From assembly GCA_044229975.1 (NCBI GenBank), contig JBGARZ010000010.1, positions 318,009 to 382,008 on the forward strand: 64,000 nt of DNA, written 5' to 3'. A model generated the notes under the pieces. That model worked only from the letters and a program-made list of their open reading frames with translations, ran no database searches and had not been told where the DNA came from. The stretch comes from Polyangiales bacterium. GTDB taxonomy: Bacteria > Myxococcota_A > Polyangia > Polyangiales > Ga0077539. Shown here piece by piece: positions 16,748-57,136 of the stretch; the first letter of the stretch is position 1; the number at the start of each line of letters is the position of its first letter. The position numbers and the translations under genes were made by a program.

Positions 16748-17677
16748 GTGAAGGTCTGCCCCACCTGCAAATCGAGCTACTCCGGCAAACCGCCGCGGTG
16801 TCCGTTGGACGGCGCGCTGCTCTACGACCTCGGCCCCGACCTCCTCGGCGGGCGCGTGGTCGCGCGGCACTTCCGCATGATCGAGCGCTGCGGCGCGGGC
16901 ACCACCGCGGACGTCTACCGCGCCCTCGACGTGAAGAGCGGCGCGGTCATCGCGGCGCGCGTTCCGACGGCCTACGGCAGCGACGACGCCACGCAGCGCG
17001 AGCGGCTCACCGACCAGGTGCGGGCGTTTCACAAGGCCGCGCCGCACGACATGCTGGTGCCCGTGCTCGACGTGCTCGAGCGCGCGGTCGATGGGCGCAC
17101 CGTGGTCATCACGGAGTTCGTGTCGACGCCGGCGCTGCCGCATGTGCTCGCGGCGGGGGCGGTTCCGTTGGATGCGGCGCTCACCGCGGGCGGACAAATC
17201 GCGGCGCTGCTGGAGCACCTCAACTCGCGCGGTGTGCTGGCGCGTGACCTGCGGGCGGGGGCGGTGTTTCTGTCGTCGACGGGGGCGGTGCGTACGCGGC
17301 TGTCCATCGACGCGCTCGCGACGGGTCCGACGTCGGCGCCTGATCCGTTGCCGGCCGTGCGCGCGTTGTCGCCGCACATGGCGCCGGCGTACCTGAGCCC
17401 GGAGCGCATCCGCGGCGAGGCGTGCACGGCGGCGGGCGACGTGTACGCGTTCGCGGCGCTGCTGTTCGAGATGTTCACGGGGAAGCCGGCGTTTACGGGC
17501 GACGGTCCCGCGGTGGTGCAGCAGCACCTCGAAGCGCCCGCGCCGGTGCTGCGACAGGTGGCGCCCGCGCTCCCGAAGGAGCTCGAAGGGCTGCTGGCGA
17601 GGATGTTCGCGAAGAAGGCGCAGTTCAGGCCGACGCCCACCGAGGTGCGCGCGGCGCTCGCGGCGCTCGCGGGCTGA
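16748..17677 (+). CDS. Ser/Thr kinase-like protein with degenerate catalytic motifs and N-terminal Cys cluster
   Basis: CPTC..CPLDG, GAGTTADVY, ARDLRAGAV, YLSPE, GDVYAFAALLFEMFTGKPAF. Confidence 0.8.
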   Translation: MKVCPTCKSSYSGKPPRCPLDGALLYDLGPDLLGGRVVARHFRMIERCGAGTTADVYRALDVKSGAVIAARVPTAYGSDDATQRERLTDQVRAFHKAAPHDMLVPVLDVLERAVDGRTVVITEFVSTPALPHVLAAGAVPLDAALTAGGQIAALLEHLNSRGVLARDLRAGAVFLSSTGAVRTRLSIDALATGPTSAPDPLPAVRALSPHMAPAYLSPERIRGEACTAAGDVYAFAALLFEMFTGKPAFTGDGPAVVQQHLEAPAPVLRQVAPALPKELEGLLARMFAKKAQFRPTPTEVRAALAALAG

Positions 17678-17715
17678 GCGGGGCGACCCTTCGATCTGGC
17701 TTATAGTCGCCCGCG

Positions 17716-18765
17716 ATGATCAAGCGGGTGCGGCTCCAGAACTACAAGAACCACCGCGACACGGAGGTCGAACTCCGCCCGCTGACAGTGCTGGTCGGAC
17801 CCAACGGCGCGGGCAAGACGAGCTTCTTGCAGGGGCTCCAACTCTTGCGAGGAGTGCCTGCGACCAACGTCGATCATTACTTCACCAGAGGTGGTCCCTC
17901 GATCGAGGCAGTCGTTCATCGCGGTAGCGATGCCGTCGCACTGCAAGCAGAGGGCACGGTGGTTGGAGAGCCATGGTCGGTTGCTCTCAACCTGCCGACG
18001 CGTCAGGTGGCTCATGGACGTTGGTCGATCGCCGACCAACCACCTGTCAGTTTCGGAAAGAACCTCGACTCGTCGCTCCCAGAGAACTCGCCGTTTCGTC
18101 AGCAATTGAAGGGCATCGAACTCTTCAGCTTCGACCCAAACAAGATCTCTGAGCCCGCGCAACTCAGTGAGGTAGTTCCAGCGGTCAAACCAGATGGAGC
18201 CAACACCGCTCCTACGCTCGCCACACTGAAGCTGACCGACCTCGGTGCATTTCAGCGCGTCGAAGCGGCTCTCCGGCAAGTGGTTCCAGGCGTTGAGCAC
18301 CTGCTCGTGAAGCCCGCACCCATGCCGACCGGCGGTGGCATCGGCTATCACGTCTCCTTCGACTTTCGCGGCGTGCCCGACGTGCCTGCGTTCGCTGCCA
18401 GCAGCGGGACCCTGGTGACCCTCGCACTGCTCACCGCGCTGCACGCGCCCGACGGCCCGCGCGTCGTGCTCATCGATGAGATCGACCACGCGCTCCACCC
18501 GAAGGCCCAGATGGCCCTCGTGCGACAACTGCGCGCGCTCCTCGCACTCGACCCTGAGCTCCAGATCATCGTGACGACCCACTCGCCGTACATCCTCGAC
18601 GCGGTCGACGTGGAGGACGTTCGGGTCTTCGCGACGCGCGCGGATGGATCGGTCGCGACCAGGTCGTTGGCGCAACACCCGGCCGCGGAGCGTACGAAGG
18701 GCACGCTGTCCGCTGGGCAATTGTGGAGCCTCGACGATGAGTCGACCTGGGTCGCGGAGGCGTGA
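17716..18765 (+). CDS. ABC/AAA_21-type ATPase
   Basis: LQNYKN, Walker A GPNGAGKT, signature ASSGT, Walker B LIDEID, HALHP, TTHSP. Confidence 0.9.
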   Translation: MIKRVRLQNYKNHRDTEVELRPLTVLVGPNGAGKTSFLQGLQLLRGVPATNVDHYFTRGGPSIEAVVHRGSDAVALQAEGTVVGEPWSVALNLPTRQVAHGRWSIADQPPVSFGKNLDSSLPENSPFRQQLKGIELFSFDPNKISEPAQLSEVVPAVKPDGANTAPTLATLKLTDLGAFQRVEAALRQVVPGVEHLLVKPAPMPTGGGIGYHVSFDFRGVPDVPAFAASSGTLVTLALLTALHAPDGPRVVLIDEIDHALHPKAQMALVRQLRALLALDPELQIIVTTHSPYILDAVDVEDVRVFATRADGSVATRSLAQHPAAERTKGTLSAGQLWSLDDESTWVAEA

Positions 18766-18768
18766 CGG

Positions 18769-19551
18769 GTGCCGACTTGGAGGATGTTCTGCGAGGCCGC
18801 GGCGGATCATCATACGACCGCAGGGATCGTCGATCGGGTCCTGGCTGAGCGTTGCGATGACTGGGTTCGAGATCTGCTCGAAACGTCTCCAGATGGTGTC
18901 CGCACATGGAGTCTCGACGAGCGCGGTGAACCCTGGTCTGACGTGCACTCGGTGCGAGACGTTGCTCGCTCGATGGGCCTGCGTCTCAACCACGGGCACT
19001 TCGGTGGAGAGCCCGCGGAGCCTTTCGCGCACATGGTCTTCAATGCGGTGCTCGTCGCTCGCGAGACGGCCAAGACGCTCGCCATCGACGCGCTCGTCAT
19101 CGTCGCGGACCTGGACAACCAACCCGCCGATCGTCTGAAGGGACTCGAACAGGGCCGCGTTCGAGGGCAGGCCGTTCTCGATTCCGTACCGGTGATCGTC
19201 GGTGCGCCGAACCCCAATCGAGAGGCGTGGGTGCTCGTCGGCTTCGATCCGCTCGACGCCGCGGAGCAGGCGAAGCTCGACGCTGAGCGCCGGACATTGG
19301 GCTTCTATCCCAACGAGTCCCCAGAGCGACTGGTGGCTGTCGACGAGCGTGCGCAAAACCACACCAAGAGGGTTCTCGACGTGTTGACCGGCGGCGACGA
19401 CGAGCGTGAGGCCCGGTGTTGGAGCGAATCTCGAATTGAGTCGTTGCAAGCGCGAGGTGTCGGCTGCGGCCTGACGCACTTCATGACCGAGGTGGAGCAG
19501 AAGCTCTGCCCGCAGATCGACAACCGCAGCAGGCCACCAACTGATCGCTGA
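18769..19551 (+). CDS. TOPRIM-like (DUF4276/RloB-type) partner of the ATPase
   Basis: N-terminal FCE..AD, central VADLD (DxD), EAWVL motif; 3 nt after ATPase stop. Confidence 0.65.
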   Translation: MPTWRMFCEAAADHHTTAGIVDRVLAERCDDWVRDLLETSPDGVRTWSLDERGEPWSDVHSVRDVARSMGLRLNHGHFGGEPAEPFAHMVFNAVLVARETAKTLAIDALVIVADLDNQPADRLKGLEQGRVRGQAVLDSVPVIVGAPNPNREAWVLVGFDPLDAAEQAKLDAERRTLGFYPNESPERLVAVDERAQNHTKRVLDVLTGGDDEREARCWSESRIESLQARGVGCGLTHFMTEVEQKLCPQIDNRSRPPTDR

Positions 19552-19558
19552 CGAGGCG

Positions 19559-20428
19559 CTACGGCGCCGGGCGCCCCGAGCAGAACGGCTGGCACCGGCC
19601 CTGAGCACAATGGTCGCTGCGACAGTCCGCGTTGTCGGTGCAGGCCGCGCCGTCGGCCGCGAACGCCCGGCGCACGCAGAAGTGCGCGTCGCTGCAACGG
19701 GCCGAGCGCGCGCAGTCCGTCGGTAGCTCGCAGCTCGCGCCGAGCCCCAGCCGCGCGCCGCAGTGGCCGCGCACGCACTCGTCGCCCAACTGGCACGAAT
19801 CGGTCGTCACCTGGCAGGCGGCGCTGCGCTCGATGCGCGGGACGCAACGACCCGCGATGCGCGGGTTCGGGCGCAGGCAGTAGGCCGTCGGGACGCAGTC
19901 GTCGCTGTACCCGCAGCGCGCACCCACGGCGGCGGTGCCGACGTAGACGCTACGGCACGACGGAATGGCGTCCTCCAACACCTCGCGGATGCTGAACGGG
20001 TCGGGGCCCATGCACGTCGTCGGAGCCGGGCCGCGAGACCGTCGCAACGCCGCGATGCACGCCGCCGCCTCCGCGCCATCAAAGCGTCGCCCGTCCGCCG
20101 GGCCTCCGTCACCGGTCTCCTGCGCAGCGAGCGCGATGAAGATCGCCCGGTCGGCGGCGGAGCGCGGGCGGTCGGCAGGGTTGGCACTGCGCTCGGCGGG
20201 AGTACAGCAGCGCGCGAAGTAGGCGTCGTGGCCCTCGTCGAGCTCCAGGCGCTGCCTCGCGAACTCCTCGCGCGTGAGCGTCGCGGGCGGTGGTGGCGGC
20301 GTGGGAGGCACCACCGTCGCGGCGGCGTCCATCGCTCGCGCAGGCGTCCGCGGCGGATCGGGCGGCGAGCGCCCGCACGCGGACAGCGCGAACAGCGAGG
20401 CGACGACGACGGATCGGTGGACGTTCAT
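19559..20428 (-). CDS. Cysteine-rich lipoprotein (Dickkopf-like Cys repeats)
   Basis: Lipobox LSAC, Pro-rich linker, repeated GA.C....DC.....C units. Confidence 0.75.
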   Translation of the reverse strand: MNVHRSVVVASLFALSACGRSPPDPPRTPARAMDAAATVVPPTPPPPPATLTREEFARQRLELDEGHDAYFARCCTPAERSANPADRPRSAADRAIFIALAAQETGDGGPADGRRFDGAEAAACIAALRRSRGPAPTTCMGPDPFSIREVLEDAIPSCRSVYVGTAAVGARCGYSDDCVPTAYCLRPNPRIAGRCVPRIERSAACQVTTDSCQLGDECVRGHCGARLGLGASCELPTDCARSARCSDAHFCVRRAFAADGAACTDNADCRSDHCAQGRCQPFCSGRPAP

Positions 20429-20657
20429 GGGACGCGTCGTGCCTACCGACTGCGCGTCGCTTCCGTCAAGGCGAGGCCGCTGTCGAGGGCGCGGTCGCTC
20501 TCGTTCGAACGGGATCTCCCACGCCACGAAGTCACGGCTCCGCGCAAGCGAAAGAGCCGCCACACGGACGATTTGTCTTCAAGCACAGTCTTCGCTCAAT
20601 CGTTCCAAAAGTTGCGGCAGAGGTACGGCAAGTGGTAATCGCGTGCGAGCCTCAATT

Positions 20658-21635
20658 ATGACGGGACCATACGAACGCCTCGTGTCGAACCAAGATCTTC
20701 CTGACTCCTTGTGGAGTTCATCTGATCGGCACCTAATAATACCTCCAACGCTCGTTCGTGCGTATGCGAAAGCAATCGTTGCACATAATCTAGAGAGTCT
20801 GAGCCAAAAAGGGGGGGCAGGAAGCGGGCCGGTCGGGGGACTGACGAAAGAAGCGTCCGACCAGCATTTTGCTCAGTCTTTCTCAGGTTCGGTGGCGCGA
20901 ATGCAACTCGCGGCGCTAGACCCTGACTGTCGTGCGGAACACGTGGCCGACGCCTTCGTGAAAATGCTGGCTGGAGGCAAAGTACTAATCATTGACGTGC
21001 CGTCAGGCTCGGGGGCTGCCTCGCTAGCGTTGTTGTGTACGATATGTGAGCTAAGGGCGAAGAGCATCCTTCCGCGAATTCCATTGGATGTAGTGTTGAT
21101 CGGTGGCGAAATATCACCTCATGCGAGAGCATACTCGCAGTATTTGTTGGCGGAAGTGCGAGGTGATTTGTGCGATCAGGCGATCAATGTCGAGTCGCGA
21201 TTCGTGCATTGGGATGCGTGTGACCGAGCCTCAACTACCTTGCTAATAAAGCAAGTTGTTCGATCTATTGAGGGATGTGCTGGGGCGCTGATGGTTGTCG
21301 CGAATTTTAATGGCTTTCTCCATCAGTCGGGCAAGCAGAAGGAGGTGAGGCCGCAGTTGGAAGATTTGTTCCGCTATGCTGCTAGTTCAAACACCACAGC
21401 GATATGGATTGAACCTCAGAACAACGGAGCAGTGGCGCAGGGTGGACTGTTTCCCTGGCTCCGAAAGCTTTTTAAGGACACTTTCTTGCAAAAGCTTGTT
21501 GAGATGATTCCTTCCGGGTCGACCGATGATTTTGTCACGATGACGACCTCAAGATTTCGACATCCAATCCGTACGACGGACGTGTATGATGTGCGGCTTG
21601 CCGTCGTGCGATTTAGCCTTCGAGAAGAGCCATGA
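20658..21635 (+). CDS. Class I SAM-dependent methyltransferase-fold protein
   Basis: Motif I VLIIDVPSGSGAAS, motif II IGGEIS, motif III VHWD, WIEP; low-GC codon usage. Confidence 0.7.
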   Translation: MTGPYERLVSNQDLPDSLWSSSDRHLIIPPTLVRAYAKAIVAHNLESLSQKGGAGSGPVGGLTKEASDQHFAQSFSGSVARMQLAALDPDCRAEHVADAFVKMLAGGKVLIIDVPSGSGAASLALLCTICELRAKSILPRIPLDVVLIGGEISPHARAYSQYLLAEVRGDLCDQAINVESRFVHWDACDRASTTLLIKQVVRSIEGCAGALMVVANFNGFLHQSGKQKEVRPQLEDLFRYAASSNTTAIWIEPQNNGAVAQGGLFPWLRKLFKDTFLQKLVEMIPSGSTDDFVTMTTSRFRHPIRTTDVYDVRLAVVRFSLREEP

Positions 21636-23371
21636 TTCCCCCTCCTCCATCGTTGGTGTCCGTACGCGCAATCAATCAATATCGGAGGCGTGATGTATTT
21701 ACGTATCTAGCGTTGCGCTACTATCTTTCCACCAGTTCCGCGCGCCGTGACTCGTGGTGTTCCGACGTCGCACCGGCAGTCGTTCTGGGGCGAACCGCGC
21801 CTGGATACTTTCGCGCGGCACACTTCAAGGAGATCGTTGGAGATGAGCGACGAGTTGAACATAGACATATTTACCTCCCCGGAGCGAACGAGGCGCTCGC
21901 GGAATCATGGTTGCTGCGAGAGTGTTCGTTGCACGCATACTTTGCCAACCCTCCTTGTGTCTTTAGCTACGAGCTTGCACATCATGAAGCGAAGAATGGA
22001 ATGTTCTGCAATTATATGGATGGGTTGCGAAAGAGACACGGCGCTGTTGCGCTAGCCTGCCTTGAGTTTCCAGCAGGTATCGTCCAGTACACTGATATTC
22101 GACGTTTTTACCCTTCGATCCCCCACGCTGTTGCGCGGGAAGCTTGGCGGAAAGCTGTAGGATCGACTGGATTGGAGCGTCGCGCCGCGAATCTTGGCGA
22201 AAAACTATTGGATGACTATGCTGCGACGGGAGATTCCGAAGGTGCTTCCGTCATCGTCGGGCCGATGTTCAGTCATCTTATTGCGAATTTAGTTCTTCGT
22301 GACATTGACAGACTTTTGTCGTCGCGGCCTGGTGTGAGGTATTTTCGTTATGTTGATGATATGATTTTTGTCGGCAATCCGGAGGTTGTTCGCGAAGCGC
22401 TTGGAGAGGCATCTGATGCACTGGCCATGCTGGGGCTTGAGATGCACGATCGAGAATCTAGCAAATCTTTGGTCGTTGCGTGCTCGACTTGGCTTGTCGG
22501 ATCAGCCGATTATCAAGAGCAGCATCGGGGCATTTCATGGATGACGCTTATTGGCGATCTGAAACGCTTTCTCCTGCTCCATCCAGAAAGGAGAGAGGAA
22601 CTCGCCTCCGCAGCAATTCGAAAAGGCTTGCGTCTGCCGGTCGTGAACTATGGCGATGCAGTGCGTGAAAGATCTTTTTTGGCACGGTTTCGTGACCTCA
22701 TATCGTTTGATTGGTTGCGCACTAAAGCGAAGAAAATTTCAGTCGACTCAATCTTACAGCAGGCGGATCATCTTCGAGGCTCCTATGGCACAGAACTCCA
22801 GCAGCTGATGGTGCGCATCGATGAGTTGGATGCGTATGAACTCAAACGTCGATTGCCAAAAATCCGCTATCGTGCCGGTCGGCTGGTTTATATTGGACAA
22901 GAAAATGCTCTGCTGGAGTTGGGTGAATCGATGGAGACAATTCCAGCGCTTGCTTTCCATGCCGCCGTGATGAAGGCCGTCGCGACTGGTAATGTTACCA
23001 ATCTCTTAGCATTCGGTGGCAACGCCACTCAAGCCGCCGCGCAACCTTTGCGCGCCGCGCAACGGAGTGCCGTGATCGATCGTTTGCCTTCTAGTTCGGT
23101 GGAATGGCAGGGTCTATCGGTCTTCGGTATATACGGAGTGCCCGTGGTAGGGGCCCACGACATGTCGACGGCGGACGAGATTTGTCGGCTGGCGTTCTTC
23201 GCTGGAAGTGACCGTAGTCTGATGTCTAGCCAGAATAGTTTCATTCGTGAAGCCGCATGCTTGCATGGGATTGGTTTGGTTCGTCACTCGGAGATGATGG
23301 GTAGTGCATTCGACAAGGACGAGGAACTGGCGATGGACGCCGTTGATCAGTTTCATCTTTCGGTTTCGTAG
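21632..23371 (+). CDS. Reverse transcriptase (unknown-group/defence-type) with long helical C-terminal domain
   Basis: YTDIRRFYPSI, GPMFSHLIANL, YFRYVDDMIF catalytic motif; ATGA overlap with methyltransferase. Confidence 0.92.
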   Translation: MIPPPPSLVSVRAINQYRRRDVFTYLALRYYLSTSSARRDSWCSDVAPAVVLGRTAPGYFRAAHFKEIVGDERRVEHRHIYLPGANEALAESWLLRECSLHAYFANPPCVFSYELAHHEAKNGMFCNYMDGLRKRHGAVALACLEFPAGIVQYTDIRRFYPSIPHAVAREAWRKAVGSTGLERRAANLGEKLLDDYAATGDSEGASVIVGPMFSHLIANLVLRDIDRLLSSRPGVRYFRYVDDMIFVGNPEVVREALGEASDALAMLGLEMHDRESSKSLVVACSTWLVGSADYQEQHRGISWMTLIGDLKRFLLLHPERREELASAAIRKGLRLPVVNYGDAVRERSFLARFRDLISFDWLRTKAKKISVDSILQQADHLRGSYGTELQQLMVRIDELDAYELKRRLPKIRYRAGRLVYIGQENALLELGESMETIPALAFHAAVMKAVATGNVTNLLAFGGNATQAAAQPLRAAQRSAVIDRLPSSSVEWQGLSVFGIYGVPVVGAHDMSTADEICRLAFFAGSDRSLMSSQNSFIREAACLHGIGLVRHSEMMGSAFDKDEELAMDAVDQFHLSVS

Positions 23372-23387
23372 TCGTCAAAAAAGTTGG

Positions 23388-23665
23388 TCGGCGCGAATCA
23401 TGCCGAGTGCGCGATCGCGGGAGCATGCAGTTAGTTTCATGGGAGAGGCGGCGTGCGAGGCGTTCGGGATGTCGAATCGGGTCGCCGTTGAGTTGGACGC
23501 CCAAGGAGCGCTTGGCAATTGGCCCTCGGTGGACGAATGGGCGATCTGTAGACTCCAAAGGGCACCGAAACGAGCGTGCTTCGTTGGGCCCCCTCGCGTT
23601 CACTCTGCCCTTTTACGTCTCATGTGTCGCTTCACTGCCCTCTGTCGGCACCGCTTTGCCGCCTC
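23388..23665 (+). ncRNA. Candidate structured RNA downstream of the RT
   Basis: Non-coding spacer with mutually compatible nested stems found by eye; not folded computationally. Confidence 0.3.
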
Positions 23666-23710
23666 GTTGATCCACCGGAGGCACTGCACTCGCTGGTATG
23701 GTCCGCGCCC

Positions 23711-25408
23711 ATGCGACCCACCGCCCTCGCGCTCACCCTCTTCGCGCTCGGTTGCTCGTCCACCCGCGCGCCGACGCCCACGACGCCCACCCCGCAGCCG
23801 CCGCGCACCGCGCCGCTCGTGGTGACCGTCGTCGTCGATCAGTTCGCCGCCTGGATCGCCGAGGAGCGCCTCCCACTTCTCCCCGACACCGGCGGCTTCG
23901 CCCGCCTCCGCCGCGAAGGAACCTGGTACCGCCACGTCCGCTACGGCCACGCCGCCACCGACACCGCGCCCGGTCACTCGTCCCTCTACACGGGCCGCGC
24001 GCCGCGCGAAAACGGCATCCTGGCCAACGAGGTTCCCAACCCGCGCGGTGAGCGCGTGTCCATCCTGCGCGACGAGGCCACGCGCGTCGTCACCGCCGAT
24101 GGGCCCATCGAGGCACCGGGCAGCTCCATCGCGCGCCTCCGCGTCGACACCCTCGCCGACGGCCTGCGCGAACACGTCCCCAACGCCGTCATCGTCAGCG
24201 TCTCCCTCAAGGACCGCGGCGCCATCTTCGGCGGTGGTCGTCACCCCACCGCGACCCTCTGGTTCGACGCGGGCCGCGACCGCTTCGTCACCTCCACCGC
24301 CTTCGGTCAGACGCTCCCCGCGTGGGCCTCGCCCCACGGCCTCCCGCCCGCCGTGCAGGCGCTGCGCGCATCACCCTGGACGCTCTCCGACGAGCCGTGG
24401 GTGCGCTCGCACGCCGCGTCGCCCGACGCGCAGCCCGGCGAAGGGGACATGGAGGGCTGGGGAACCACCTTCCCGCACGACTTCACCCGCGCCCGTCGCC
24501 CCGCCAGCGCGCTGCGAGCCTCACCGATGGGCGACCTCGCGGTGCTGCAACTCGCCGAGGACGCGCTTGCCGCGCGCGACCCGCAGGCCCCGATGCTGCT
24601 CGCGATCTCGCTCTCGTCCAACGACTACGTCGGGCACCTCTTTGGTCCCGACTCGTGGGAGGCGTGGGACCAGCTCCGTCGCCTCGACGCCTCGCTCGCG
24701 CGCTTCTTCGAGCGCCTCGACGCGGTCGCCGGGAGTGATGGCTGGTCGCTCGTTCTCTCAGCCGATCATGGCGTCATCGGGCTCCCCGAGACGGCCAACG
24801 TCCCCGCGGCGCGGCGCTGGTGTGACGGCGCCACGGCGCGCGGCACCGACCCCTACGAGCGCCCCTGCGGAGCGACGGGACGGCTCGACCCCGACGCCAT
24901 CGCGAGGGAGTTGCAGGCCGCCGCGGTGGTCGCGCTCGGGCCCGGTGAGTGGGTGCTCGGCGTGGCCGATCCGTACGTCTACCTGACGCCCGCGGGCGAA
25001 GCGCTGGAGGGCGCGCGGCGGACGCAGCTCATCACGGCGATGACCGCGCGGCTGCGACAACACACGGAGGTCGATCGGGTGCTCGACGTGCGCGAGGTGG
25101 CGCCGTCGTGCGCGGCGGGCGAGTCGGTTGACGCGCTGCTCTGTCACGCGATCCCCGCGCGCAACGGCGCGGCGGTGTACGTGCTGTTGAAGTCGGGGTC
25201 GTTCTTCGACTCGGGCTACGCGCTCGGCTTCGGGACGAGCCACGGGTCGCCGTACCTCTTCGATCGCACGGTGCCGCTCATGGTGCGCGCGCCGGGTCGC
25301 GAGCCCGCGGGGCGCGTGGTGGACGAGCCCGCGTCGTTCACGGAGTTCAGGCGGCAGGCTGAGCGGCTGCTGGGCCTGCCCGAGCGGGCGCCCGCGACGA
25401 CGCCGTAG
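23711..25408 (+). CDS. Alkaline phosphatase family lipoprotein (PafA/nucleotide pyrophosphatase type)
   Basis: VVVDQF, TDTAPGH, SLKDRGAI, DYVGHLFGPDS.E, SADHG, GTSHGSPY. Confidence 0.9.
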   Translation: MRPTALALTLFALGCSSTRAPTPTTPTPQPPRTAPLVVTVVVDQFAAWIAEERLPLLPDTGGFARLRREGTWYRHVRYGHAATDTAPGHSSLYTGRAPRENGILANEVPNPRGERVSILRDEATRVVTADGPIEAPGSSIARLRVDTLADGLREHVPNAVIVSVSLKDRGAIFGGGRHPTATLWFDAGRDRFVTSTAFGQTLPAWASPHGLPPAVQALRASPWTLSDEPWVRSHAASPDAQPGEGDMEGWGTTFPHDFTRARRPASALRASPMGDLAVLQLAEDALAARDPQAPMLLAISLSSNDYVGHLFGPDSWEAWDQLRRLDASLARFFERLDAVAGSDGWSLVLSADHGVIGLPETANVPAARRWCDGATARGTDPYERPCGATGRLDPDAIARELQAAAVVALGPGEWVLGVADPYVYLTPAGEALEGARRTQLITAMTARLRQHTEVDRVLDVREVAPSCAAGESVDALLCHAIPARNGAAVYVLLKSGSFFDSGYALGFGTSHGSPYLFDRTVPLMVRAPGREPAGRVVDEPASFTEFRRQAERLLGLPERAPATTP

Positions 25409-25415
25409 GAGGGCG

Positions 25416-27344
25416 TCAGAGCGTTTCGAGGTACGCGACGAGGTCGCTGATCTGCTCGGCCAGGAGGTGCGAGGTGTGGCCGTGCCGGTCGCCGCCGCCA
25501 CACGCACCGAAGCGGTCGCGCAGCGTCGCGGCGCAGCCGTTGTGCAGCAGCGGGGTGCGCCACGCGACGCCGCGCAGCGACGGAACCTGAAACGCCCCGC
25601 CCGTTCCGACATCCACCGTGACGTTGTTGGTGAGGTGCTCGCCGGCGTGGCACGTCGCGCAGCCGACGGTGGGCTCCTCGAAGACGGCCCGGCCGCGCGC
25701 GACGGCGTCCATGTCCTGCGGCGCGGCGGTCGGAATCGCGGGCTGCGTGGTGCTCCAGCGCTCCAGGGCGTCGACCTGATCGGGCCGCAGCCGGCCGCCG
25801 CTCATGCGCTGCGCGAACACCTCGGCCGCGAGGCGCTCGAAGGTCGGCATGTCGCCGTCCCAGTGGAAGGGCGCCGTGCCCACGAGGCCGCCGTGGAGGT
25901 TCTGCGTGCGGCGGGCGCCGATGGGGGAGAAGTTCCAGACGTGGGCGTCGTCGCCGCCTTCGGGGTGGCACGACGCGCAGGCCACGAAGGCGCCCGCGTT
26001 GGAGTGGAAGAGGCGGTGTCCCGTGTCCTCGCGGCCCTCGCCGCCGAACTGGATGGTCACGCCGTTTTCGACGACGAGGGTCGAGGGCTCGCGCGTCTGC
26101 ACCACCGCCCGGTTGTCGGGCGTCATCGCGACCGCCACGGCCTGCCCGCTGCGCAGCGGTAGATCCGTCCCGATGGCGCAGCGACCCGCCGAGGTCTGCG
26201 CCATCGCCTCGGGCGTGAAGCTCAGCACCTGCGACGCTCCCGCCAGCAGCGAGTTGCCCGGGATCACCACCACCGCGCGCGCGCCGTCGGACGAGAGCGC
26301 CACGTCGACCGCGAGCGCCACGCCCGACAGCGTCGGCGTCGCGACGGGCGTCCCGCTGCCGATCGCCGAGAGGGCGCCCTGCACCACGCCGGTCTGACAC
26401 GTCGGTTCGCCGCCGCCGTAGCCGCCGGGGCCGATGGCGACGCTCGTGCTGAGGGCGCGCTGGTGCAACACGACCACCCCGCCCGGTGCGGCGATGGTGC
26501 GCCACGCGACGCCCGTCTGGCCGCCGATCGCGACGCTGCGCCGGACCATCGCCTCGGCGACGTTGGCGGGACGCACGCGGCGCGTGATGGTTCCGGCGGC
26601 GTTGAGGGTGAGCAGGTCTGCGCTGCGGAAGCGAGACACCACGAGGCCGTCGCCCTGCACGACGACGTCGCGCAGGTCGCGGTCGACGTACACCCGGCGC
26701 GTCTCCGCGCCCCCGTCGGCGGGCAGGCTGACGAGCTCCCCGCCCGCGCAGGCGACGTGCAGGAGTCGGGTCGCCGGGTCGTACGCGACGCCCCGCGGGG
26801 CCGGGCACACCGCGCGCCGCGAGACGATCGCGCGCGTCGCGAGGTCGAGAGAGACCACCGCGCCGCCACGGCGCAGCGCGACGTGGACGCGACGCGCGCC
26901 GTCTTCGACGATGCGGCCGGGCTCGTCGCCCGCTTCGAGGGCCACACAGCCGAGCGGGATGGTCGAGGTGAGGTCGCCGAAGCACACGCGGTCGCGGTCG
27001 GGGTCGGACGCCACGGCGATGCGCCCGTCGCGGGCGACGAGGAGGGTCCCGCCGCTGATGGCGGGCGGCGTCACCGCGGGGGTCTGCGTCGCGGGAACCC
27101 TCAGGCTGAAGGCGCCGACGGGGGGAGGGGCGTCCGTGGGTGGTGCCTGCTGCACGTCGCGGGTGAAGCCCGCATCGGTGCCTGCGTCGGCGCGCCGACG
27201 CGGCTCGACGCTCCCGGCGTCGGGCAACGGGAACACGATCGGGTCGTAGGGCATCAGCACGGGCGGCGGCTCGAACCAACAGCCCGCCGACAGCCCACCG
27301 AGCAACAACAGACCGCCTGCGCTGAGTTTCGACGACGGTCCCAT
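25416..27344 (-). CDS. Lipoprotein: beta-propeller fused to di-heme cytochrome c (peroxidase/MauG-like)
   Basis: Lipobox LSAGC; propeller repeats; CASCH and CATCH; APFHWDG and VPSLRGV...PLLHNG. Confidence 0.85.
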   Translation of the reverse strand: MGPSSKLSAGGLLLLGGLSAGCWFEPPPVLMPYDPIVFPLPDAGSVEPRRRADAGTDAGFTRDVQQAPPTDAPPPVGAFSLRVPATQTPAVTPPAISGGTLLVARDGRIAVASDPDRDRVCFGDLTSTIPLGCVALEAGDEPGRIVEDGARRVHVALRRGGAVVSLDLATRAIVSRRAVCPAPRGVAYDPATRLLHVACAGGELVSLPADGGAETRRVYVDRDLRDVVVQGDGLVVSRFRSADLLTLNAAGTITRRVRPANVAEAMVRRSVAIGGQTGVAWRTIAAPGGVVVLHQRALSTSVAIGPGGYGGGEPTCQTGVVQGALSAIGSGTPVATPTLSGVALAVDVALSSDGARAVVVIPGNSLLAGASQVLSFTPEAMAQTSAGRCAIGTDLPLRSGQAVAVAMTPDNRAVVQTREPSTLVVENGVTIQFGGEGREDTGHRLFHSNAGAFVACASCHPEGGDDAHVWNFSPIGARRTQNLHGGLVGTAPFHWDGDMPTFERLAAEVFAQRMSGGRLRPDQVDALERWSTTQPAIPTAAPQDMDAVARGRAVFEEPTVGCATCHAGEHLTNNVTVDVGTGGAFQVPSLRGVAWRTPLLHNGCAATLRDRFGACGGGDRHGHTSHLLAEQISDLVAYLETL

Positions 27345-55840: not shown

Positions 55841-57136
55841 TCAGCTCGCGACCGCGCCGCCCACCCGACGACTCAAGCGCACGCCGTCGGCGGTGCGCGT
55901 GAGAAACGCCTGCATCCCGCGGTGGTAGCGCGTCGGTCGCAGCGTCGCGTCGGCGCACACACGCTCGCCCGTCGCCACGTCCCACACCGTCGTCCCGGCC
56001 TCGTCGTGGATGGCGAAGAGGTACCCATCGAACACCAGCGAGTCGGCCAGCACCCGCGGCGGCCACGCCCTCGGCGGTCGCACCCGCGGCCCCGCGAACC
56101 ATCGCAGCAGTCTTCCCTCTCGCGCATCGATCAGTAGCGCCGACGGCACCAACCACTCGTCGTCGTCGCCGTAGCCCCACAGCGCCACCGTGCGCTTGTC
56201 GACCCAGCACGCGGGGCCGTCCCAGTAGTAGTCGCGGGTTGCCAGCCCACGCAGCGTCGGGCCGTCCTCCGACTCCCAGACGTTGCCCTGCCACGCGTCG
56301 AGGCTCCACGCGCGCACCACGCCGACGGGGTGCCAGATCCAACCGCTGTCGATGATCCACGCGCCGTCGGGCGAGACCGCGAGGCTGCCGTGGAAGTAGT
56401 CGAGGTAGTGCTCGGGCGGGGGGCCACCGCTCTCCCGCGGGGCGAAGGTGCGCTCGCTCAACACCCGATCGGCGGCGACGTCGATGAGGTCGAGGCGGTT
56501 CCATTCGGAGCCGGTGACGAGCAGCGTGCGGTCGTCGCGACGCGCAAACGCCACGGGAAAGAAGCTGTTCTGGGGGCGGTACGATCCGCGATGGAGGCGG
56601 CGCACCACGCGACCGTCGCGCAGGTCGACCACCACGCCGAGCGAGCCCGACACCTCGAAGATCGCGGCGTAGTCACCGACGGGCGAGAGGCGCAGCCCGC
56701 ACCCGGCGCCCAACGCGAAGCCGAGCTCCTTCGGGCGACGCACGCGGGTGACCCCACCGCTCGCAAGGTCGACGCGCAGCAGCCATCCATCGCTCAGCAG
56801 AAACCAGCACCCCGCGGCGTCGTCCGAGCACGGTTGGAAGTCGACGACCTCGGCGTCGAAGGAGAGCGCGACGTCGGTGCGCACGAAGGCGAGGTCGGTC
56901 TCGCGGGTGAGCGCCTCGGGCTGCCCGACGGCGCCGCCGCAGTACGCGTCGTCGGCGTGCTTCGTCCACCAGGCGTCGTCAACGGCGCACCACGCGGGCG
57001 CCTCGGGGTGAGTCTTGGCGCAGTCGACGCAGGCCCAGTTGCGAGCGAGGCCGCGACCGGTGAACCACAAGCGGAGGTCCGACGGGTTGAGAAGGACGTG
57101 CTCGCAAACAAGATCGGGGCGCTCGTCGGTGACCAT
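55841..57136 (-). CDS. Hypothetical protein, beta-propeller-like with N-terminal Cys/His cluster
   Basis: CEH..CVDC; LSPVGD/VSPDG and TTVWD repeats; host-like codon usage. Confidence 0.7.
   Translation of the reverse strand: MVTDERPDLVCEHVLLNPSDLRLWFTGRGLARNWACVDCAKTHPEAPAWCAVDDAWWTKHADDAYCGGAVGQPEALTRETDLAFVRTDVALSFDAEVVDFQPCSDDAAGCWFLLSDGWLLRVDLASGGVTRVRRPKELGFALGAGCGLRLSPVGDYAAIFEVSGSLGVVVDLRDGRVVRRLHRGSYRPQNSFFPVAFARRDDRTLLVTGSEWNRLDLIDVAADRVLSERTFAPRESGGPPPEHYLDYFHGSLAVSPDGAWIIDSGWIWHPVGVVRAWSLDAWQGNVWESEDGPTLRGLATRDYYWDGPACWVDKRTVALWGYGDDDEWLVPSALLIDAREGRLLRWFAGPRVRPPRAWPPRVLADSLVFDGYLFAIHDEAGTTVWDVATGERVCADATLRPTRYHRGMQAFLTRTADGVRLSRRVGGAVAS

Follow-up and report, generated by a model that had tools for sequence, protein, structure and literature searches.

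The window analysed here is a stretch of 64,000 nucleotides from a Polyangiales bacterium (assembly GCA_044229975.1, contig JBGARZ010000010.1, positions 318,009 to 382,008 of the forward strand), and the element in question is a two-gene module in which a gene for a protein with the fold of S-adenosylmethionine (SAM)-dependent methyltransferases (ORF1, referred to below as the partner) precedes a gene for a reverse transcriptase (RT; Table 1). The two genes are translationally coupled through an ATGA overlap. The partner carries the motifs DVPSGSG (residue 113), GGEIS (149) and ANF (215), and the RT carries YTDIRRFYPSI (153), GPMFSHLIANL (210) and YVDD (240). Both open reading frames (ORFs), their overlap, these motifs and a sharp drop in GC content had been described in an earlier sequence-only reading, and its coordinates and motifs were verified. 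The same reading regarded the pair as a candidate unknown system, which did not hold, since the module is catalogued as UG36, with a methylase partner and a predicted defence role (PMC9226505, cited, like the other papers below, from the passages available).

Table 1. Features of the UG36 locus, in coordinates of the window
Feature	Position	Strand	Remarks
SAM-methyltransferase-fold partner (ORF1)	20658..21635	+	ATG to TGA, 325 aa
UG36 reverse transcriptase, intact	21632..23371	+	ATG to TAG, 579 aa
Partner: glycine-rich SAM-binding motif, taken to be motif I (D113-x-P-x-G-x-G)	20994..21014	+	D113 127/128, P115 123/128, G117 128/128, G119 120/128
Partner: ANF at end of strand 4	21300..21308	+	N216 118/128, F217 117/128; strand ends at 215
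Partner: WIEP motif	21405..21416	+	W250 124/128, E252 128/128, P253 122/128
RT: Y25, most conserved tyrosine outside polymerase motifs	21704..21706	+	Y in 106/108 aligned RTs
RT: YVDD catalytic motif	22349..22360	+	invariant in 108/108 RTs
RT: helical C-terminal domain, residues 296-579	22517..23368	+	AlphaFold model; likely equivalent of Class 1 alphaRep domain
Low-GC acquired islet	20550..23690	.	GC profile; boundaries approximate
61-bp remnant, 3' end of host gene	20488..20548	-	82% identity to two copies on contig C1

Family membership and pairing of the two genes

The RT almost certainly belongs to UG36, an assignment that rests on profile scores rather than on placement in a tree. The PADLOC check proposed in the sequence-only reading returned the RT_UG36 model (entry PDLC03775; E 2.5e-170, 566 bits), with residues 7-576 aligned to model positions 3-554 of 557, whereas the next-best model reached E 3.4e-15 and 54 bits and matched the core only; the match to RT_UG35 was weak (E 9e-11). 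Distant loci (L073, L080, L082 and L154) also score best on RT_UG36. A separate methylase-domain gene adjoins the RT, as membership in UG36 requires, and the two ORFs found here differ from the UG35 form, in which methyltransferase and RT are fused in one ORF. The placement of the RT among UG/Abi-type enzymes with a helical C-terminus was thereby upheld, as was the exclusion of the other familiar RT classes. The retron motifs NAxxH and VTG are absent from the RT, and the NCBIfam retron models, like those for group II introns and for the defence-associated RTs (DRTs) DRT2, DRT3 and DRT4, remain far below cut-off. The intron maturase model TIGR04416 gives 29 bits against a cut-off of 300, no Rfam match occurs in 17000-26000, and no template/variable repeats of a diversity-generating retroelement (DGR) were found in 19400-24200, where short chance-like repeats alone are present.

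The association of UG36 with methylase-domain genes (clusters 169/2186) and its resemblance to the fused groups UG25 and UG35 have been described by Mestre 2022 (PMC9226505). In the passages available, a defensive role for UG36 is predicted on the basis of individual loci; the group lies outside those tested there, is left unclassified and yields no evidence of an alphaRep domain. The pairing itself is therefore already known, and the locus, a further intact example of a catalogued module, is in itself no discovery. No functional study of UG36 was found in the literature searched, whose coverage excluded subscription papers, in agreement with the sequence-only reading; a full-text search gave PMC9226505 alone as relevant, and the available passages of a 2026 overview of DRT1-9 (PMC13213688) name no methyltransferase system.

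The pairing was followed in the best 80 UG36 loci from genomes and in 48 UG36-type loci from metagenomes, some of which duplicate genome loci. It proved nearly obligate, bearing out the notion of a coupled two-gene unit whose homologues keep the methyltransferase upstream: the partner lies directly upstream of the RT in 75 of the 80 genome loci and in 43 of the 48 metagenome loci. The five genome loci without it comprise three contig edges, a broken RT (L053) and a shortened RT (L077), and the five metagenome loci without it are contig edges. An NTGA overlap joins the two genes in 55/75 genome pairs and 30/43 metagenome pairs, and across 65 pairs the identity matrix of one protein correlates with that of the other (r 0.91). 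The partner is without a match in 33 of 35 other RT loci (many being short contigs); the remaining two, both UG35, carry it fused. UG36 loci span Proteobacteria, Cyanobacteria, Bacteroidota, Verrucomicrobiota and Acidobacteriota, among others, and broken copies of the module occur as well (L009, L027, L029, L053, L061 and L068).

Candidates for a true fusion within UG36 were rejected: a 902-aa ORF in L017 seems to result from a frameshift close to the end of the partner, and the proteins P0194 and P0227 are internal-deletion chimeras. Full-length methylase-RT fusions of the UG35 type were observed in metagenomes (L157:359-3436 and L179:35-3064). Searches of viral contigs returned three unrelated RT cores and nothing else, those of phage records no match to the partner and those of plasmids one weak match. 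Among sequencing runs, no RNA run was listed as carrying the module, and one DNA run contained short pieces only.

The module is of foreign origin. The GC content is 0.527 in each of the two genes and 0.713 in the genome, and at third codon positions it is 0.53 and 0.52, respectively, versus 0.91 in the next host gene; none of 3691 non-overlapping 2.7-kb windows of the genome has a GC content as low as that of the module. The drop begins at ~20550 and the host level is regained at ~23700, as the sequence-only reading had noticed. At its left edge lies the tail of a host gene, represented on contig C1 by a whole copy (G000:C1:17787-19277) and a partial one (56299-56904), and this remnant, which reads in the same frame as the C-terminus of the C1 copies, marks where host DNA ends; the gene behind it, judged from its sequence, resembles a glycoside hydrolase. 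Searches of 30 related genomes, eight of them of the same genus (64-100% complete), did not detect the partner, nor was the RT found among 400 genomes drawn from the phylum. The low GC content, this absence and the host-gene remnant together indicate horizontal acquisition. An empty insertion site was sought in 11 relatives, whose loci around the downstream phosphodiesterase gene share with the window that gene alone. No convincing flanking repeats were detected among those of 19400-24200, and a scan of the locus for promoters and terminators remained at chance level.

The open frame of ORF1 extends further upstream (453 aa from a GTG at 20274; 402 aa in the protein-database call), and the ATG given in Table 1 is the start common to ORF1 homologues, including a 325-aa homologue of 88% identity. 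A partner copy in the protein database (P0123), 88% identical, was observed on a 2-kb contig, and a close relative of the islet therefore exists elsewhere.

Structure and conservation of the two proteins

The polymerase site of the RT is intact, given that K66, R78 and D155, like YVDD, are invariant in 108/108 aligned RTs. Motif B reads GPxxSH, as in DRT6, and PQG is absent. A basic, aromatic N-terminal helix (R18, Y25 and R29) is conserved, and Y25 may be regarded as the first candidate priming residue, with Y113 (105 of the 108 RTs), Y128 (97, with F in 11) and S112 (107) as further candidates. In the AlphaFold model of the RT, which scores 90 in the predicted local distance difference test (pLDDT) and 0.90 in predicted template modelling (pTM), helices make up nearly all of the C-terminal ~280 aa. 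An unbiased structure search against 48,161 chains, of which 50 rows were listed, suggests what this region may be. Among the matches listed, only AbiA, AbiK, Abi-P2, DRT4 and DRT6 align over 370-415 residues, into the C-terminal lobe, and the other 45 align over 264 residues or fewer; the best template modelling score is that of DRT6 (0.45), and the structural identity to Class 1 structures is 9-14%. The hhalign comparison of the UG36 RT profile with the fused UG35 proteins covers residues 75-452, UG35 being a Class 1 group in PMC9226505. The C-terminal domain alone matches the two UG35 tails together at 49% (E 1.7e-4), and singly the tail of L157 is the best of 33 RT tails (E 7e-4). These comparisons of models and profiles give moderate support to the presence of a Class 1 alphaRep-type C-terminal domain in the RT. 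Class 1 enzymes have been described to prime on a tyrosine of varying position and to make random single-stranded DNA (ssDNA) (PMC12783706; bioRxiv 2026.10.27.754916).

The partner is modelled with high confidence (pLDDT 96, pTM 0.94) as a class I Rossmann methyltransferase fold, as the sequence-only reading had proposed, and has no methyltransferase match in Pfam, NCBIfam or PADLOC; a search of PDB sequences with its profile gave nothing below E 0.49. Its conservation was counted in 128 homologues. The glycine-rich motif was assigned by us as motif I of class I methyltransferases, and ANF stands at what we take to be the position at which amino-DNA methyltransferases carry NPPY. Beyond the motifs of Table 1, W185-D186 are conserved, as are G60 (128/128) and H70, S78 and R81 (at least 122/128). 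This pattern is consistent with a second site in addition to a SAM pocket, and E252 is a candidate catalytic or substrate-binding residue.

The partner is no classic restriction-modification (R-M) methylase, a point on which the sequence-only reading was right: the [DNS]PP[YFW] and PC motifs of R-M DNA methyltransferases are absent, hhalign comparisons with HsdM, IIG, type II and C5 methyltransferases from neighbouring genes give 2.3% or less, and no DNA methyltransferase occurs among the 50 structural rows listed for it. Those rows come from re-aligning the best 1000 Foldseek hits; the top eight are human METTL17 and yeast Rsm22, which match the whole length of the partner (Z 16.4-18.3, 254-267 residues aligned). 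The best of these rows has Z 18.3 with 258 residues aligned and an rmsd (root-mean-square deviation) of 3.8, and the next family, small-molecule methyltransferases, reaches 14.5. In vitro, yeast Rsm22 methylates tRNAs and shows no preference; it is proposed to bind RNA via a separate OB domain (PMC8171064). METTL17 sequesters rRNA helix 31 and has been ascribed an architectural role (PMC9892005). The fold of the partner is therefore compatible with an enzyme as well as with a SAM-bound clamp. The partner is also related to the N-terminal domain of fused UG35 (RT_UG35 positions 81-163, E 1.8e-6; hhalign 95%, E 2.9e-8). In the Atlas the nearest clusters are unnamed; one carries Methyltransf_34 on 14% of its members, which is a lead only.

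Neighbouring genes and flanking RNA

Neighbouring genes (up to two per side, of at least 180 aa and within 2.5 kb) were selected at 72 loci, and 209 of the 214 selected ORFs were scanned with PADLOC in two batches with different cut-offs (1e-30 and 1e-40); the defence count excludes a kinase match (L015) and a generic ATPase match (L033). A defence match stands beside the module in 31/72 loci and none in 41/72; the sequence-only reading had proposed to test homologues for defence islands, and defence neighbours are indeed frequent. Methylation-based neighbours (type I R-M, IIG/DISARM, type III, type II methyltransferase or BREX) occur in 23/72 loci, a fraction that has no control family beside it, and coupling of the module to them is frequent (L017, L026, L032, L051, L063, L074 and L075). 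As no single neighbour family appears in more than seven loci, the unit consists of two genes.

A gene for a DEDDh 3'-5' exonuclease directly follows the RT in five loci, four of them related cyanobacterial ones and one from Eubacteriaceae (L033:7767-8477, L036, L039, L047 and L079:3107-3697), with a gap of 11-26 nt or an overlap; Pfam confirms the assignment in L033 and L079, and none was found in the metagenome loci. The pair and this gene possibly form a three-gene variant present in two phyla. In L051:1833-10770 a type III methyltransferase gene, the UG36 pair, a UvrD helicase gene and a DUF1848 gene form a tight run, UvrD and DUF1848 being companions given separately for UG35 and UG25 (PMC9226505).

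Several further arrangements were observed. In L065, L067, L070, L017, L109 and L144 the UG36 pair is located within, or directly follows, genes for DISARM-like or type IIG methylases, and in L065 a remnant of the 3' end of such a methylase gene is found just upstream of the pair. In L005:3015-5042 a gene for a DinG-type helicase (a PADLOC type IV CRISPR-associated model) overlaps the partner start by 4 nt. In the window itself, a gene pair occupies 17716-19551 (+): an AAA_21 ATPase gene, whose best PADLOC model is HEC-01A (E 6.6e-43), is followed 3 nt later by a gene whose 260-aa product matches nothing in Pfam, NCBIfam or PADLOC. The GC content of this pair is 0.64, and 0.75 at third positions versus 0.91 in a host gene; lying 1.1 kb upstream of the UG36 islet, it is possibly a second acquired ATPase-nuclease defence pair.

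BLAST comparison among 104 upstream and 104 downstream flanks revealed no conserved flanking non-coding RNA (ncRNA). The flanks of the window were unmatched, and clusters comprised at most 5 of the 104, the largest made up of 3' ends from neighbouring genes. The conserved, structured intergenic RNA that lies beside the RT in the ncRNA-dependent systems DRT2, DRT3, DRT9 and DRT10 was thus not found in the flanks, to which this comparison applies, and Rfam returned 0 matches in the region scanned. By our own ORF calls the module has 60 nt or less on both sides in 9/64 loci, and in L026, L051 and L075 annotated genes lie within 6 nt on both sides; some loci therefore leave no room for a flanking ncRNA. 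The data are still compatible with an RNA located within the genes or provided in trans. The sequence-only reading had supposed that the methyltransferase modifies the template of the RT, its product or a protein: the lack of a conserved flanking ncRNA weakens the first of these, and the DNA product or a protein could still be a substrate.

Proposed mechanism and relation to known systems

By analogy with AbiK, DRT4, DRT6, DRT1 and DRT10, the UG36 module is tentatively proposed, at somewhat less than an even chance, to act in anti-phage abortive infection, with template-free, protein-primed ssDNA gating a SAM-binding, Rsm22-like effector. The parts of this proposal differ in strength. That the module serves defence is highly probable and that RT synthesis is template-free and protein-primed is fairly likely; the role of effector for the partner is evenly balanced, and RNA as its target is doubtful. 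The RT would oligomerise via its helical C-terminus and make protein-linked ssDNA constitutively, possibly from Y25, and 3'-5' exonucleases would hold this DNA short. A phage ssDNA-binding protein or a rise in deoxynucleoside triphosphates would alter the state of the DNA, upon which the partner may be released or activated to methylate or clamp an RNA of translation, either tRNA or small-subunit rRNA, and so arrest the cell. Precedents include priming at Y125 and exonuclease turnover of DNA in DRT4 (PMC12783706), exonuclease turnover in DRT10 (bioRxiv 2026.04.29.721553) and DNA adducts that regulate the nitrilase effector of DRT1 (PMC13275509). In a bolder and rather unlikely version, UG36 would represent a methylase-RT lineage (UG35/UG25/UG36) in its split form: a template-free DNA polymerase would control an enzyme resembling Rsm22/METTL17, and this enzyme would halt infected cells by methylation or clamping of tRNA or rRNA.

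A number of observations weigh against this proposal. As regards the RT, the C-terminal superpositions on Class 1 enzymes are loose (rmsd 5.0-7.1, Z 11.9-14.6), and its core superposes with higher scores on the RTs of G2L4, DGRs and group II introns (Z 16.5-19.4). The single UG35 tail of L179 reaches only E 0.12, and among the controls for the tail match an unrelated RT tail gave E 0.008 and 20 shuffles at best 0.03. As regards the partner, PF09243 matches 0/128 homologues at E 0.05, hhalign with eight bacterial members of the Rsm22 family gives 0.9%, the model consists entirely of the methyltransferase fold, without an extra OB domain, and the protein is not basic (33 K+R, 34 D+E). Both proteins have the same nearest neighbour in only 26/65 pairs, the loci without a PADLOC neighbour outnumber those with one, and the direct neighbours of the module in the window are host genes for a predicted lipoprotein and a phosphodiesterase. 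The partner also need not be the effector, since DRT4 and AbiK-type RTs defend as single genes.

The main rival, itself rather doubtful, reverses the roles: toxicity would reside in the RT, and the partner would serve as its SAM-dependent brake or sensor. When phages deplete SAM or obstruct methylation-based defences, the partner would release the RT, such that the pair guards R-M, DISARM or BREX. The 23 loci that adjoin such systems, often with coupling, favour this explanation, as does the SAM pocket being among the best conserved parts of the partner. It would also suit the architectural role described for METTL17 (PMC9892005) and the SAM-cleaving enzyme (SAMase) of phage T3, which defeats type I R-M and BREX (10.1101/2023.02.27.530186). 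Set against it are the 49/72 loci, and the locus of the window itself, without a methylation-based neighbour, and the missing control family for this fraction. R-M operons are, moreover, known landing sites for unrelated defence cargo, and the invariant E252 together with the conserved H70, S78 and R81 suggests a second ligand site.

Less probable still is that the partner methylates the DNA product of the RT, nucleotides or the RT protein, thereby marking, stabilising or licensing the product. Tight coupling and the fused UG35 form would bring both active sites together, and ANF, with its largely conserved N216, lies at the presumed NPPY position of amino-methyltransferases; these points stand against the lack of a DNA-methyltransferase catalytic motif in the partner and the absence of any DNA methyltransferase resemblance in its structural rows and hhalign comparisons. 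Slightly weaker again, and improbable, is RNA-templated synthesis, in which the Rsm22-like partner would bind or mark a host, phage or intra-operon RNA and pass it to the RT. The proximity of the RT core to the template-dependent G2L4, DGR and group II intron enzymes, the rRNA binding of the nearest fold of the partner, the conserved N-terminal RT helix and the example of DRT3, a Class 1 RT that works with an ncRNA (PMC13213688; PMC9226505), speak for it, but no flanking RNA is conserved and the full-length architecture of the RT matches that of template-free enzymes. That the pair is not anti-phage at all, and is a selfish or stress-related module hitch-hiking in variable regions, is very improbable: no published phenotype was found in the literature searched, many loci lack a PADLOC neighbour and broken copies occur, but defence genes, too, typically show patchy spread over many phyla, foreign GC content and turnover, the module is not accompanied by mobility genes, and a defence role is predicted for UG36 (PMC9226505).

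UG36 is one of the UG/Abi groups for which no experiment was found, while each tested DRT shows a different DNA chemistry. The present analysis narrows what such work may expect: a likely Class 1 architecture, no need for a flanking RNA, a partner fold that is RNA-directed, and YVDD, Y25, D113/G117 and E252 as candidate residues. A partner acting as SAM sensor or as methylating effector would in either case represent a new mode of phage defence. Were it, as in the bolder version above, to methylate RNA, the module would provide an immune effector that works through methylating RNA, and its fold, that of a mitoribosome assembly factor, would have a defence branch in bacteria.

Compared with UG36 as described by Mestre 2022 (PMC9226505), the locus has the same full-length profile, a separate upstream methylase-domain gene and the same predicted defence role, and hence an identical architecture. 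The alphaRep domain, unseen in that paper, is favoured here by the modelled structure, and its available passages give no fold family for the partner; the C-terminal superposition, the UG35 alignment, the absence of a flanking ncRNA and the METTL17/Rsm22 fold go beyond these passages. UG35 is one protein of ~1000 aa where two ORFs are found here, and its representatives L157 and L179 align to both partner and RT; UG25, a Class 1 methylase-RT fusion, is likened by description only. METTL17 and Rsm22 provide the best whole-length structural match for the partner, yet at 11-13% identity, with no sequence-profile link, without an OB domain on the side of the partner and in a different context, and the common fold in itself shows no function.

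DRT4 (UG15), DRT6 (UG12), AbiK, AbiA and Abi-P2 resemble the RT described here in that the core is followed by a helical lobe replacing the thumb and no ncRNA flanks the gene, and DRT6 and the UG36 RT also have the GPxxSH motif B in common; they differ as single genes with shown protein-primed, template-free synthesis and no methyltransferase partner. DRT1 (RT-nitrilase) and DRT10 (RT, ncRNA and SLATT) belong to other RT classes and have other effectors, and DRT10 requires its ncRNA, yet both follow the logic suggested for UG36, in which DNA made by the RT regulates a separate effector.

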